64,000 nucleotides of DNA from a virus. Lineage: Duplodnaviria > Heunggongvirae > Uroviricota > Caudoviricetes. The position numbers and the translations under genes are program-made. The stretch is from IMG/VR virus record IMGVR_UViG_2802429224_000004, positions 1 to 64,000 of that record. One strand, given 5' to 3'. Under the pieces are notes generated by a model that was given only the letters and a program-made list of their open reading frames with translations, ran no database searches and was not told the origin of the DNA. This document shows, one piece after another, positions 10,777 to 14,984 of this stretch (its first letter is position 1; every line of letters begins with the position of its first letter).

Positions 10777-10793
10777 ATTGCTCTAATTAATTT
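10777..10793. promoter_or_regulatory. C1 repressor operator-like 17-mer upstream of ssb
   Basis: ATTGCTCTAATTAATTT, 16/17 match to remembered P1 C1 operator consensus ATTGCTCTAATAAATTT. Confidence 0.5.
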
Positions 10794-10812: not shown

Positions 10813-11301
10813 GTGGCACAACGCGGTGTAAACAAAGTCATCCTGATTGGTACCCTGGGGCAAGCCCCGGAGATCAGGTATATACCAAATGGCGGAGCGG
10901 TCGGAAGACTCAGCATCGCAACGAATGAATCATGGCGCGACAAGCAAACGGGCCAACAGAAAGAGCAAACAGAATGGCATAAAGTCGTTTTGTTCGGAAA
11001 ACTTGCTGAAATTGCGAGTGAATATTTACGAAAAGGTTCTCAGGTCTACATCGAAGGGAAACTTAAAACCCGTAAGTGGACAGATGACGCCGGTGTAGAA
11101 CGTTACACGACGGAAATTATCGTCAGCCAGGGCGGCACCATGCAAATGATCGGCGCTCGCCGTGACGATTCACAGTCCTCAAATGGCTGGGGGCAATCAA
11201 ACCAACCTCAAAACCACCAGCAATACAGTGGTGGCGGTAAACCTCAGAGCAACGCCAATAACGAACCTCCAATGGACTTTGACGACGATATTCCGTTTTG
11301 A
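10813..11301 (+). CDS. ssb: single-stranded DNA-binding protein
   Basis: 162 aa, GTG start; OB-fold N-terminus highly similar to E. coli SSB, Gly/Gln-rich linker, acidic tail DFDDDIPF. Confidence 0.9.
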
Positions 11302-11498
11302 ATGTGTAAAAAACGACTGAAAGAAAAGCGGTGGTCCAGACGCCGACAAAAGTACGAACTCGCAAACAAACGCCAAAGTTGGCAATGGCACGCGCTTTTC
11401 ACGAAAAGAACACCCCGAGATATTGCTTTCGCTGGTGGGAAAACATTCCTGACCCACCTGAAGGCGCAAGACATCAGGTTTTAAGCAGAGGAAAGACT

Positions 11499-12176
11499 AT
11501 GAATAACATGACAACGAAAGAGCTTTTGACGGCACTTCCAAAATACAAAAGCCATAAAACAGTTCGCGCCTCAAAAATCAAAGATATCGAAATTATCGCC
11601 CTAATGGATGTGGTCCTTTTTTGCAACATCGAAGTCGTTGAGCCAGAAGGGGTAAAAGTCCATGTTGATAAAATGTTTTTGCAAAAACACCGACCAGAAA
11701 TTGGCGGATATCTGGTCGCTTATGAGAACGGATCTCTGTCCTATTCACCAGAAAAAACATTTGAAGAAGGCTTTAGTCGGACTAACGACTTCTTCGAAAA
11801 TGGGGTATCGCTCAGTATTGAAGGTCACAATGGGGTGACATTCATTACAGCCAGGGACGTAACTATTTCTGCTGGCGGTATCGCTACTCTACAAGAAGAA
11901 ATCGACCTTGAAGCAGCCGACTTTTCTGACGCGCTGATGTGGCTGAAGGATGGCAAGAAAGTTGCTCGACGCGGGTGGAACGGCGAAAACCAATTCTGCT
12001 GGCTGGTTCCTGAAGGACAGTACCCGGCACGAATGGAAGCCATTAAGGGATATTTCCCCGGCGACCTCGTTCCGTATGGTGCTTATTTCGCCTTAAAAAA
12101 TGCACAAGGTGTAGTTGTTCCGTGGGTTCCTTCTGTAGGCGACTTACTGGCATGTGACTGGTTTGTAGTGGAGTGA
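11499..12176 (+). CDS. DUF2829 (Tad2-like) domain protein with unknown N-terminal domain
   Basis: ATG at 11499 with gagg RBS; C-terminal ~85 aa carry the DUF2829 signature (ALMWLKDGKKVARRGWNGENQF ... VVPWVPSVGDLLACDWFVVE). Confidence 0.5.
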   Translation: MNNMTTKELLTALPKYKSHKTVRASKIKDIEIIALMDVVLFCNIEVVEPEGVKVHVDKMFLQKHRPEIGGYLVAYENGSLSYSPEKTFEEGFSRTNDFFENGVSLSIEGHNGVTFITARDVTISAGGIATLQEEIDLEAADFSDALMWLKDGKKVARRGWNGENQFCWLVPEGQYPARMEAIKGYFPGDLVPYGAYFALKNAQGVVVPWVPSVGDLLACDWFVVE

Positions 12177-12182
12177 TTTAAC

Positions 12183-12965
12183 GTGGAAAATACTAAAGCA
12201 ATTCAATACCGCCTGCGTAATGGTCAGAGTGTCGAAGTGACCATCAATAATGATGGTGTGCCTGGCGAAAAGGTTTCGATCTCTGATCTGGCTATCGAAA
12301 AAACCATCATGTGCCACCTTGGCTTTACTGAAGAAGTGAGCAAAAAGCATGGTGTAGCAATCTGGAGCGCAATGGATACTGGTATGCGCAAATTCATTAC
12401 TGCTCGTACCCCAGGGATGACCATGATGGACCTCATGCAGATTGCGCCGCTGTTTGAATGTGAGCCTTTAGATGTATTCAGCAATCCAGCTATCTGCCAG
12501 CAGTTATATGGTGAGATGAAACTCGCGGTTACCCCCATTGTGCTGCATGAAGGATCGCTTGCTGGCGTGTGGAAAGTGGAGCGTATTTCAAGCTACATGC
12601 CTTTCCATGTCAACGGCGTAATCACTGGTGAAAATCAACCTGTTTCCGTTATAAAGTCAGACCTCAAGCGCGCAATTCTTGAAGCAAGTTGTCGAGTTGT
12701 CGGCCTGGGCAAACAGTCTTATGTTTCCTTCCCGGCTGGCCCTGAAGGCCCGGCAGAAATTCTGATTATGGATGCCGATCTGCTCTGGCAAATACAGTTT
12801 CTGATTGGCAAAAGCATCATCCGCGCTGAAGAACTCGATCAGTACATTACCTGCACGATGACGGATGAAGTCAAAAGTGTGGCTATAGCCAATGCCCGGA
12901 ACCTATGTCGTGCTGCATTAACAGAACTGCAAGAAAACACCACGGAAGAAGTGGAAAGCGATTAA
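12183..12965 (+). CDS. hypothetical protein
   Basis: 260-aa ORF, GTG start 7 nt after upstream stop (operon with DUF2829 gene), followed by terminator; no motif recognised. Confidence 0.4.
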   Translation: MENTKAIQYRLRNGQSVEVTINNDGVPGEKVSISDLAIEKTIMCHLGFTEEVSKKHGVAIWSAMDTGMRKFITARTPGMTMMDLMQIAPLFECEPLDVFSNPAICQQLYGEMKLAVTPIVLHEGSLAGVWKVERISSYMPFHVNGVITGENQPVSVIKSDLKRAILEASCRVVGLGKQSYVSFPAGPEGPAEILIMDADLLWQIQFLIGKSIIRAEELDQYITCTMTDEVKSVAIANARNLCRAALTELQENTTEEVESD

Positions 12966-12996
12966 AAAAAATCCCGCCGATTGGCGGGATTTCTTC
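12964..12996. terminator. bidirectional rho-independent terminator
   Basis: A-run, hairpin atcccgccgattggcgggat, T-rich tail; between convergent operons. Confidence 0.55.
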
Positions 12997-13306
12997 AATA
13001 TACGATCTGGTCTACATGATCACCAAAATCATCGTCGTCGTCGTCCTCATCGCCACCATCTACTGCTGGCCAATCAACAAACCAGCCAGCGTAAAGATGC
13101 AGCGTTCGGAGAACATCACTTGCGGGAGCATCAAGGGTGTTAACGAATCCCATATAGCTATTGGGATTTGCCCCAGCTATGGCTTCAGCGATCATGTCCT
13201 CGGTAATGTCACCGGAGATAATGCTTAAACGCCCGGAAACTTCTTCATTATCATCAAATTCGATAATGGCATCTCCACCTAATGGCGCTGCGATTTTAAT
13301 CTGCAT
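12995..13306 (-). CDS. small highly acidic protein at distal end of Dar-type operon
   Basis: 103-aa ORF overlapping upstream stop by 11 nt; C-terminal DGGDEDDDDDDFGD run. Confidence 0.4.
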   Translation of the reverse strand: MQIKIAAPLGGDAIIEFDDNEEVSGRLSIISGDITEDMIAEAIAGANPNSYMGFVNTLDAPASDVLRTLHLYAGWFVDWPAVDGGDEDDDDDDFGDHVDQIVY

Positions 13307-14984
13307 TATTTAGCTCCTTTGCCACACCTAATAACAGTTCCAGCAATCCGTCACCATTCATCAGTGATGCGGCAGCGGCCTCTTTGTCATGATACAACTG
13401 AAGAGCCATAGAGAATACTTCCGTTGCTGACGTTTTGGAAATAGTCGGTGATTTCTGCCGAATTTTCCCGGTGTTACTTACTGAGGCTGGCGGGTATACC
13501 TTCGCCATATAAATATTACTCAATCGAGATCTGAAGCACCATTCAGGCTTGCCACGCCCACCGATATTGACGAAAGATGGCTTATCCCCTTCAACATTGG
13601 CCTTCAGGAATGACCGGGCTTTCTCTAACAAACCAGGGTTACTGTACTCAAGATGATGACCCAGCTCGTGCCACAGTGCACTTGCATTTTCATCGTTCAA
13701 ATTGACAGCAACAACACCATTAAGATTTGCATATGCCCTTCCCTGGTGGTGAACTACCTTTGATAAGGTCGATATTTTCCCGCCGGTCAGGCGATAAATA
13801 TCAGCAAGTTCCTTGCGCAGGTCTATCCCACCATTCTGTCCAGCGCGGACTTCTTCCACTTCTTCTGTGATAAAAGAGTCGGCCCACTCAAGAGCTTTTT
13901 CTTCAGATACGGATGAGTTTGCGATCGCACTGTTCATGGCAGATAACACTTTCTCGTGGACCGAACCCATACTTCGCTGATTCATTTGCCAGCGTATCTG
14001 CGGGTTATATGAGAATCGCTTAAGTAGTTGGTCAAGCTGCTCAAGTTCTTCTTCACTGACATACTTTTTAGCCTCACCAATAATGCCAGGGAGAATATTG
14101 CCGTTAGGATTAAACGCTCGCGAAAGGAAGAGTTTCAGCGCCCCCATGCCCTCCGATGCTTCAATATCACCAATAACCCGGTTAACAATGGCCGCACTCT
14201 TCGGATTAGCATCCGCCAACGCTCTGGCTACGATTTGCAGGGACGATACGACCTCACGCTGCATATCAGTCCTGATCTCATCAATAAACTCTGGCGTTAT
14301 GCCGTGCTCTTTTAGGATATCCCGGCCTTCCGCCGTTACCCCATCAATATCCCCGAGATGTTTATTAACCCGACTTTGCAATGCCTTAAATGCCTTCAGA
14401 ATTCCACGGGCATCATCCGCTTTACTAACGGCCTTCCTGAATGCTGGCAAGAAGTCTGAGTTAACCTCATTTTGTTGATCGGCCCACTGAATGGAGGCTT
14501 CTTTCATCTCGTCCAGAGTCAGATCACCCAACGCGGTATGGTCTGTGAATATGAGCGACAACCTCTGAACCATTTCTGCCAATGGTGATGCCGAATGCGC
14601 CGCGCTAAGGAATGCTTTCACCCTGGTTGGGCGAATGGAAAACCAGTCAATAGCTGGTGGCATATCTCCGTTTTTTATCGCCTGCGCTATCTCGTCAAAG
14701 CCATCGCGCCCAAGGGAGGATGCGTGATTTAACAAGCCGCGAAGTAACGAATTGCTGATACCGAATAATCGGCACCATTTTTTCACGTCGGCAACAGGCA
14801 TTCGAATAAAATGCGCAAGCACTTGTACAAGCTGTTCATCCTGGGGATCTGTACGGGAAAGCAGCCTGATCAGATGAATAATGTCTTTGATGCCGGATGC
14901 CCGATGTAATAACAAGCTGGTATATGGAGCAACACCGTTGTATCCGCTGCTGGTGGTCATAACTATCTGATCGTTTAAACTCAT
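13296..14984 (-). CDS. DdrB-like Dar operon protein with HExxH motif
   Basis: 562 aa; position after darA/ddrA-like genes; contains HELGHH (zinc-metallopeptidase-type HExxH). Confidence 0.45.
   Translation of the reverse strand: MSLNDQIVMTTSSGYNGVAPYTSLLLHRASGIKDIIHLIRLLSRTDPQDEQLVQVLAHFIRMPVADVKKWCRLFGISNSLLRGLLNHASSLGRDGFDEIAQAIKNGDMPPAIDWFSIRPTRVKAFLSAAHSASPLAEMVQRLSLIFTDHTALGDLTLDEMKEASIQWADQQNEVNSDFLPAFRKAVSKADDARGILKAFKALQSRVNKHLGDIDGVTAEGRDILKEHGITPEFIDEIRTDMQREVVSSLQIVARALADANPKSAAIVNRVIGDIEASEGMGALKLFLSRAFNPNGNILPGIIGEAKKYVSEEELEQLDQLLKRFSYNPQIRWQMNQRSMGSVHEKVLSAMNSAIANSSVSEEKALEWADSFITEEVEEVRAGQNGGIDLRKELADIYRLTGGKISTLSKVVHHQGRAYANLNGVVAVNLNDENASALWHELGHHLEYSNPGLLEKARSFLKANVEGDKPSFVNIGGRGKPEWCFRSRLSNIYMAKVYPPASVSNTGKIRQKSPTISKTSATEVFSMALQLYHDKEAAAASLMNGDGLLELLLGVAKELNNAD

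Follow-up and report, generated by a model that had tools for sequence, protein, structure and literature searches.

What the 260-codon open reading frame (ORF) between ssb and the Dar-type operon of this element does, and whether it does so together with the gene in front of it, are the questions raised by this locus. The window, i.e., the whole 64,000-nucleotide stretch of DNA that was analyzed, is from a P1-like phage-plasmid, and Salmonella phage SJ46 is the element most closely related to it, with 99.3% nucleotide identity over positions 11300 to 13320. The initial annotation had described the product of this ORF as an unknown protein, cotranscribed with a DUF2829 gene, that could be a second anti-defense or defense component. 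The ORF itself is present as described there.

12183 to 12965, plus strand: ORF of 260 aa, almost certainly the isaA ortholog, with a GTG start, stop codon included

This ORF is a genuine gene, since it is conserved at 80+ related loci and is under purifying selection, with a median dN/dS of 0.13 among 42 distinct P1-type alleles and of 0.19 among 20 D6-type alleles. In a BLASTP alignment with residues 60 to 320 of phage P1 IsaA (YP_006486, "IS1-associated gene A"), 246/261 residues (94%) are identical to those of the window protein. The IsaA proteins of SJ46 and RCS47 are 99.6% identical to it, and a PHROG 2326 profile match spans its residues 1 to 260 (E value of 2.3e-149). Based on these comparisons, the window ORF is almost certainly the ortholog of P1 isaA. 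The description of the protein as unknown needs correction in that it belongs to a family that already has a name, but it stands in that no function has been assigned: in the literature that was searched, isaA is mentioned only in gene lists, a CRISPRi essentiality table, and descriptions of a variable region, and the P1 virion proteome paper does not mention it in its main text. A CRISPRi screen of P1, the assay of which covers lytic growth only, scored isaA as nonessential (PMC10695390).

The surroundings of isaA in the window are as follows.

10777 to 10793, plus strand: predicted C1 operator (equivalent of Op21/Ossb), ATTGCTCTAATTAATTT, 20 nt upstream of ssb
10813 to 11301, plus strand: ssb (162 aa), first gene of the predicted operon, 99% identical to ssb of P1 and of SJ46
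11302 to 11498, plus strand: leader of 197 nt from ssb to the next gene, ending in the RBS module TAAGCAGAGGAAAGACTATG
11499 to 12176, plus strand: Tad2-domain gene (225 aa) with a PF11195 match; called "DUF2829 domain-containing protein" by PGAP
12168 to 12185, plus strand: probable coupling junction, consisting of GGAG, the TGA stop, the 6-nt spacer TTTAAC, and the GTG start of isaA
12969 to 12992, both strands: putative intrinsic-terminator hairpin with a 10-bp G+C-rich stem (-17.1 kcal/mol; z score of -2.2)
12995 to 13306, minus strand: hxr (103 aa), PHROG 2292, also named hxr in SJ46 and P1

The P1 annotation gives a 320-aa IsaA product with a GTG start 30 nt past ssb, and this gene model needs correction. 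The frame annotated in P1 as the IsaA N terminus has internal stops in 6/14 sequence variants, and PGAP places the starts of both P1 isaA and the Tad2-domain gene at the ATG that follows the leader. These two observations lead us to conclude that the 56- to 59-aa N-terminal extension of P1 IsaA is untranslated leader and an annotation artifact. On the same grounds (stops in 6/14 variants of the frame opened by the GTG at 11331, and the choice of the ATG by PGAP), we place the true start of the upstream gene in the window at the ATG at 11499 and not at 11331. The window leader is ~98% identical to that of P1 (4 differences over 197 nt, counted from the sequences). The RBS/start module TAAGCAGAG(A/G)AAAGACTATG is used by isaA in P1 and by the Tad2-domain gene in the window and in D6-type elements. 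P1 has no Tad2-domain gene, and P1 isaA, which directly follows the ssb leader, therefore takes the RBS/ATG module that serves the Tad2-domain gene in the window. In both P1 and the window, isaA has the same orientation and lies after ssb and its leader, whereas the 3' side differs: P1 has IS1 and isaB between isaA and hxr, and the window has a 29-nt terminator spacer alone.

The C1 operator at 10777 to 10793 has 1 mismatch to the P1 operator consensus, and a C1-controlled operator of ssb is annotated at the equivalent site in both P1 and P7. There are 7 matches to the operator in the window versus 0.36 expected by chance. A sequence scan of the plus strand from ssb to the end of isaA found no promoter-like or terminator-like sites, and the leader RNA has no significant structure (z score of -1.06). 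Since the operator precedes ssb, no plus-strand promoter or terminator intervenes, and the leader is without significant structure, ssb, the Tad2-domain gene, isaA, and the terminator most likely form one C1-repressed early transcript.

At the 3' end, the hairpin at 12969 to 12992 lies 4 nt past the stop of isaA and 3 nt past that of the convergent hxr gene, with A8 upstream and TTTCTTC downstream. Because it follows both stops so closely, it could plausibly serve as a bidirectional terminator common to isaA on the plus strand and hxr on the minus strand. The strong bidirectional terminator proposed in the initial annotation is plausible from the strength and position of the hairpin, but the hairpin is not among the calls of a simple terminator scan. 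Rfam searches of the leader and terminator region gave only subthreshold matches, all on the terminator. The D6-type isaA gene also has a strong hairpin with a T run directly 3' of it. Beyond the hairpin come hxr, ddrB, ddrA, and darA on the minus strand, which agrees with the location originally given for the ORF, between ssb and the Dar-type operon. The placement of isaA after ssb and its leader and before hxr/ddrB is shared with P1 and SJ46. As the convergent final gene of the darA-ddrA-ddrB-hxr operon, hxr marks the boundary of the isaA cassette and lies outside it.

The isaA gene is placed behind a C1-repressed promoter, and no separate promoter-like site for it was found. Both points bear directly on the possibility that IsaA is encoded by the prophage to protect the lysogen, as a defense or superinfection-exclusion protein. 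It is true that isaA falls in a region of P1-like plasmids that is known for variable cargo (PMC9603915) and that the corresponding slot in P7 holds a lysogenic-conversion porin. However, no PADLOC-DB family matches IsaA (0 families at an E value of ≤1) and no effector-type domain is present, and we give this possibility only the slightest chance. The suggestion that the gene might be a defense component is unlikely to hold for a gene that is behind a C1-repressed promoter.

The gene upstream of isaA has a variable N-terminal domain of ~135 aa and a full-length C-terminal Tad2 domain, which matches PF11195 ("Tad2-like," formerly DUF2829) at residues 141 to 224 with an E value of 1.6e-22. Its nearest solved relatives are ModTad2 (9eib; E value of 6e-20) and Tad2 (8v3e). 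ModTad2 is a His-ADPR sponge, which acts by sequestering His-ADPR (bioRxiv 10.1101/2024.01.03.573942). The isaA ORF opens 7 nt past the final base of the upstream TGA (12174 to 12176), exactly as first noted, with a Shine-Dalgarno sequence, GGAG, 9 nt before the GTG and within the 3' end of the Tad2-domain gene. From this arrangement, translational coupling of isaA to the Tad2-domain gene is probable in the window. The junction sequence, GGAGTGATTTAACGTG, is identical in D6-type phage-plasmids (e.g., L003), where it is at another locus (24/24 loci). In RCS47, an IS26-blaSHV-2 transposon is inserted within the neighboring Tad2 gene.

Our survey of 80 IMG/VR loci and several others gave the following picture of how often the two genes occur together.

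P1-type isaA, 93 to 100% identical to the window protein, 60 loci: Tad2-domain gene directly upstream in 23 and not in 37
D6-type isaA, 47 to 49% identical, 24 loci: Tad2-domain gene directly upstream in 24/24, with the identical junction
Distant isaA, 19 to 32% identical, loci L005 to L009 and L093 to L096: where context is available, in a cre-proximal early operon; Tad2-domain gene upstream in none

The P1-type genes are preceded by ssb in 59/60 loci, and the exception is on a contig that begins 163 nt before isaA. At the D6-type locus, the order is cre, phrog_1968, wHTH, dUTPase, Tad2, and isaA-like, beside phd/doc and not after ssb. Since 37/60 P1-type loci, in which the ssb leader runs straight into isaA as it does in P1, and the distant homologs have no Tad2 neighbor, the pairing of Tad2 with isaA is frequent but facultative. 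The isaA gene itself is also accessory: ssb is kept but isaA is absent in P7, JL22, phi456, and 673R5, and in the two of these that were inspected (P7 and JL22), a porin gene occupies the isaA interval. With this absence, the nonessential score, and no function assigned to the family, isaA is not the P1 core gene of assigned function that would have refuted the initial annotation. We conclude that isaA is an accessory protein-coding gene of P1/D6-like phage-plasmids. The compact two-gene cassette that had been proposed is supported by the tight coupling, the closing terminator, and the presence of the same pair at the D6-type locus, but the operon most likely starts at Pssb and the pairing is not obligatory.

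These data allow us to weigh the idea that IsaA is an obligate partner (subunit, regulator, or adaptor) of the Tad2-domain protein and that the two make up one anti-Thoeris or antisignaling system. The identical 6-nt coupled junction, the weak GTG of isaA right behind the Tad2 stop, and the retention of the pair at two genomic loci, with a Tad2 domain preceding 24/24 D6-type isaA genes, are what an obligate partner would lead one to expect, and a survey of phage-plasmids found Tad2 in 93% of the D6 group and 56% of the P1 group (bioRxiv 10.1101/2025.09.12.675607). However, isaA occurs without Tad2 in P1, in the 37 P1-type loci, and in every distant relative, and Tad2 proteins function alone, as homotetrameric sponges (bioRxiv 10.1101/2024.01.03.573942 and bioRxiv 10.1101/2025.07.12.664507). 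In addition, the Tad2 C-terminal domain is 97 to 100% identical between P1-type and D6-type elements, while IsaA in the same elements is just 48% identical, which argues against coevolution. The nucleotide match of the window to D6 reaches ~40 nt into isaA and ends there. The shared Tad2/isaA junction therefore points to a recombination tract rather than to coevolution, and a tract that extends ~40 nt into isaA is enough to explain the shared junction. We consider an obligate partnership quite improbable.

The IsaA family is small. Just 34 IsaA matches came from searching 1.84 billion representative proteins exhaustively with a profile, a word-indexed search of a 5.8-billion-protein collection with a broader alignment gave no relatives more distant than those from the HMM search, and a scan of genome contigs with a narrower alignment gave two Escherichia loci only. 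Members are found on 468 PLSDB plasmids of ~75 to 120 kb, of which 448 are predicted to be nonmobilizable. The PLSDB hosts are Escherichia, Salmonella, Shigella, Pantoea, Klebsiella, Enterobacter, Serratia, and Xenorhabdus, plus one Acinetobacter record. Among complete E. coli genomes, 428/5,426 (~8%) carry an isaA locus, nearly always on a plasmid, and 116 of these 428 have the full Tad2-plus-isaA arrangement.

Five divergent P1-like elements (L005, L009, L093, L095, and L096) have a C1 repressor and a Cre-like integrase that is 31 to 39% identical to P1 Cre, and in all five, the isaA-like gene, which is without a Tad2 neighbor, closes the cre-proximal early operon. The gene before it is a wHTH gene in L005, L009, and L096 and a dUTPase gene in L095. 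The identity of IsaA-like proteins is 48% for D6 and falls to 19 to 25% for the distant elements, and so the family is not evolving dramatically faster than Cre. Because the distant homologs fill the cre-proximal slot, paralogy with P1 Mat or Ref was suspected, but it was rejected: Mat gave an hhalign probability of 0.1 against the IsaA family and no BLASTP match, and the upstream 174-aa neighbor is not Ref.

Two further explanations have to be considered in view of this genomic setting. The first is that IsaA is an accessory of replication, recombination, or nucleotide metabolism that works with SSB, Ref, or dUTPase in early lytic growth, e.g., as a mediator with SSB or RecA, and not DNA, as its binding partner; we rate this as rather unlikely. 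The second is that IsaA is a lineage-specific regulator of the life cycle, acting through protein-protein contacts on the lysis-lysogeny decision, Cre/lox cyclization, or plasmid maintenance. This would fit with the occupation of the same slot in the five divergent elements, alongside a divergent c1, cre, a c8-like gene (phrog_1968), and mostly a wHTH/MarR-like gene. It would also fit with the presence of a C1 repressor and a Cre-like integrase in every isaA-family element with sufficient flanking sequence and with the residence of the family on large, mostly nonmobilizable plasmids. However, P7-type phage-plasmids have the same life cycle without isaA, P1 isaA has moved away from cre and c8, the wHTH partner is absent from P1, and IsaA has no DNA-binding domain. 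The nonessential score of P1 isaA also counts against a regulator, although that assay was of lytic growth only (PMC10695390). On this evidence, a regulatory role is unlikely.

Sequence searches with the protein confirm the earlier impression that it has no recognizable motif: Pfam (E value of ≤1, with the protein and all 17 family members), NCBIfam, and PDB sequence searches are empty, as is PADLOC. An AlphaFold2 run with 6 near-identical sequences gave an unusable model (pLDDT of 45) and was replaced by a run with 17 diverse homologs, which gave a confident model (pLDDT of 86.6 and pTM of 0.82). The model consists of an N-terminal hairpin and an alpha-beta-beta-beta-alpha module (residues 35 to 91), a second alpha-beta-beta-beta-alpha module with extra strands (residues 102 to 214), and a long C-terminal helix (residues 228 to 259). 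Past approximately residue 250, the alignment has a variable acidic or proline-rich tail of 6 to 82 residues. No internal duplication of the two modules is detectable by hhalign, and no transmembrane or signal feature was found. Foldseek comparison of the model with PDB and BFVD gave nothing significant save P1's own fragment.

All 17 family members have a pI of 4.4 to 5.1 and two modules that are both net negative. The window protein has a net charge of -11 over 260 aa, with -5 of this in the 10-aa tail, and is predicted to be a soluble acidic protein (pI of ~4.9) with a short disordered acidic tail. The start Met, Y9, G124, L126, W130, A164, G174, and D219 are invariant in the 17 members, only one of these residues being charged, and Q106, L218, and Y221 are near-invariant. 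Most of the conservation falls in the C-terminal module (residues 106 to 179 and 218 to 221), while the N-terminal module and the tail vary. We found no conserved catalytic constellation, basic nucleic acid-binding surface, or conserved Lys/Arg cluster in the family.

These features also bear on whether IsaA is a nucleotide-signal sponge or a signal-degrading enzyme that provides a second anti-CBASS, anti-Thoeris, or anti-Pycsar activity beside Tad2. Sponge genes cluster and even fuse, as in Tad2-Acb4 and Tad2-Sequestin (bioRxiv 10.1101/2025.07.12.664507). The invariant or near-invariant residues Y9, W130, Y221, Q106, and D219 are aromatic or polar, as is typical of nucleotide pockets, and the long C-terminal helix of the model could drive oligomerization. 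However, known sponges are short and have positive pockets, unlike IsaA with its two acidic modules, searches of PDB folds gave no match to Tad1, Tad2, Acb1, Acb2, or Acb4, and no conserved catalytic set of His, Asp, or Glu is present that would suit an enzyme. We regard a sponge or signal-degrading enzyme as very improbable.

The reading that we prefer, to which we assign a probability of roughly one in three, is that IsaA is a nonenzymatic binder that neutralizes a host or competitor protein and that it is an anti-defense or host takeover factor independent of the neighboring Tad2 sponge. According to this proposal, isaA would close an early operon kept off in the lysogen by the C1 repressor, and IsaA would bind its target early after infection or induction through the conserved C-terminal module. 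The proposal is based on the properties of IsaA as an accessory, acidic, early, and probably C1-controlled protein with no enzyme motif, on the conservation of its second module, and on its anti-defense neighbors, and its independence of Tad2 is suggested by the fact that isaA stands alone in 37/60 P1-type loci and in every distant relative. The neighbors in question are the Tad2 domain upstream and the adjacent Dar anti-restriction operon. In addition, the equivalent operon region of a relative contains a gene for Sequestin, which is a viral sponge (bioRxiv 10.1101/2025.07.12.664507). An anti-defense role for IsaA is plausible from this gene context. The proximity to Tad2 would then reflect both the clustering of anti-defense genes and recombination through isaA that drags the upstream gene along.

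Against this proposal, the family has been resident for a long time, in a conserved slot (cre, c8-like, wHTH, and isaA-like) in elements where Cre is 31 to 39% identical to P1 Cre. A conserved slot and modest divergence fit an arms-race gene no better than a housekeeping or regulatory gene specific to the lineage. A PDB fold search of the IsaA model against solved anti-defense proteins also gave no significant match. It is possible, but on the doubtful side, that the family is an unrecognized class of anti-defense or host takeover protein, i.e., an acidic two-module binder of ~260 aa, specific to P1/D6-like elements, that would neutralize a host immune or DNA surveillance protein soon after infection. 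If this were true, the class would have been missed by sponge screens that left out proteins of >200 aa.

Clinical and veterinary Enterobacteriaceae commonly contain P1-like phage-plasmids, which are also carriers of resistance genes. If IsaA counters host defense, it would be a new class of inhibitor in a classic model phage and would help to explain host range. Deletions of isaA are viable, so the anti-defense idea is simple to test, and we consider isaA a reasonable candidate for anti-defense screening. What the present analysis adds is a corrected start for P1 isaA, an operon model, and a confident two-module structural model. It also adds that the family is restricted to P1/D6-like phage-plasmids, where it occupies one or the other of two genomic slots, and the finding that the Tad2/isaA association is linked to recombination and facultative, and is not a two-component system. 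The comparison of presence and absence across P1-like genomes that the initial annotation had called for shows isaA to be an accessory gene, with its Tad2 neighbor in 23/60 P1-type and 24/24 D6-type loci.

Compared with known systems, IsaA shares with the viral sponges Tad1, Tad2, Acb2, Acb4, Sequestin, and Lockin that it is phage encoded and early, and it adjoins a Tad2-domain gene. Sponges are short (typically <100 to 200 aa) homo-oligomers with a positively charged interprotomer pocket (bioRxiv 10.1101/2025.07.12.664507). In contrast to these proteins, which are usually <100 aa with basic pockets, IsaA is an acidic protein of 260 aa without similarity to them in sequence or fold, and judging from its sequence, it seems unlike the usual signal sponge. 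IsaA as a Tad2/DUF2829 protein was rejected because PF11195 (E value of ≤1) and PDB sequence searches with it are empty and the upstream gene matches instead.

The proteins 1R7L (from a Bacillus cereus phage) and 4PUP correspond to just one of the IsaA modules, at 9 to 16% identity. We take 1R7L to represent the "phage ABA sandwich" family. None of the 17 IsaA members matches the ABA sandwich or DUF2591 NinX Pfam family at an E value of ≤1, and hhalign of the IsaA family with a NinX/DUF2591 protein gave a probability of 0.1. Because those families are without known function, the resemblance to 1R7L and 4PUP gives no mechanism. A PD-(D/E)xK (Hjc-like) nuclease was rejected since the conserved D...(D/E)xK residues were not found on the central sheet. 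Ocr and ArdA have a very high density of negative charge that mimics the DNA backbone, and IsaA as a DNA mimic of this type was rejected since its charge density is too low and neither protein is among the fold matches listed.

Comparison of IsaA with alpha-beta-beta-beta-alpha domains of the dsRBD-like type (e.g., those of ADAR2, TRBP, and Staufen) gave marginal scores. On sequence and charge, a dsRBD was rejected because the modules are acidic, there is no dsrm Pfam match, and there is no conserved Lys/Arg cluster; at most, IsaA would resemble the class of dsRBDs that bind protein and not RNA. The likeness to the D6-type homolog (P0015, a hypothetical protein of phage D6) extends over the full length of the protein, at 48 to 49% identity to window IsaA, and the gene for this homolog, like isaA in the window, follows a Tad2-domain gene across an identical stop/start junction and is itself followed by a strong terminator.

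The leader between ssb and the Tad2-domain gene, 197 nt long, contains a short open reading frame for which there is no PGAP call:

11302..11484, (+), 60-aa ORF beginning MCKKRLKEKRWSRRRQKYELANKR..., very basic, within the leader

Its ATG start abuts the ssb stop codon (TGAATG), none of the 12 distinct variants interrupts the frame, and its variable sites fall 10/3/10 at codon positions 1/2/3. These features hint that 11302..11484 may be a small, unannotated, ssb-coupled gene. An overlapping stretch, 11331..11498 (+), was also considered as coding and was rejected, as 6 of 14 variants carry stop codons within that frame. From sequence comparison, we conclude that the N-terminal 56 to 59 residues of the annotated 320-aa P1 IsaA (NC_005856, 21569..21736) are non-coding, as is the corresponding N-terminal stretch of the 281-aa ORF that would start at GTG 11331 in the window. 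In D6-type elements, which are phage-plasmids with a 47-49% identical IsaA, the start codon of the Tad2 genes is the MNNM ATG, which immediately follows dUTPase.

The Tad2-domain protein carries an additional domain that has no Pfam match:

11499..11900, (+), N-terminal domain of ~135 aa, PHROG 11049/872

From locus to locus this domain has been exchanged or has diverged, with 53-99% identity or else no match, whereas the Tad2 domain itself is 97-100% identical in most of them. Since fusions of Tad2 with other sponge domains are known, e.g., with Acb4 and Sequestin (bioRxiv 10.1101/2025.07.12.664507), the ~135-aa domain could be a further ligand-binding module. Distant P1-like elements have further conflict-related genes close to their isaA homolog (L093, 9964..10185; L095, 8258..8788 and 10890..11225). 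These are Sequestin (PF21825, a 3'cADPR sponge family), a Tlde1-domain protein, NinX/DUF2591, and Fic/Phd modules.

Beyond the site at ssb, the 17-nt C1 operator consensus is matched at six positions in the window with 0 to 3 mismatches, against a chance expectation of 0.36 for the whole window:

6927, 36762, 38910, 53865, 57387, and 57398, C1 operator matches

Presumably, further operons under C1 control in this P1-like genome lie at these sites.

Two further features were compared with related phage-plasmids:

13296..14984, (-), ddrB, 562-aa product
12966..12994, isaA-hxr spacer (equivalent interval compared in related loci)

DdrB is 562 aa in the window versus 995 aa in P1 and Salmonella phage SJ46. 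The short form, also present in two other IMG/VR loci (L055 and L058), is an in-frame internal deletion that fuses approximately the first 12 residues to approximately residue 447. Lost with it is the N-terminal part of DdrB, previously assigned to the DdrB-like ParB domain (Iyer et al., PMC5512222); the C-terminal metallopeptidase part is retained.

The isaA-hxr spacer is 35-36 nt in the window and 14 other loci and ~0.8-1.6 kb elsewhere, and by this comparison it is an insertion hotspot. It is occupied by IS1 and isaB in P1 and by ISSod13 in RCS47, in which the Tad2-domain gene is also broken by an IS26 composite transposon with blaSHV-2. In P7 and JL22, the ssb-hxr interval as a whole contains a porin gene (nmpC/ompD).
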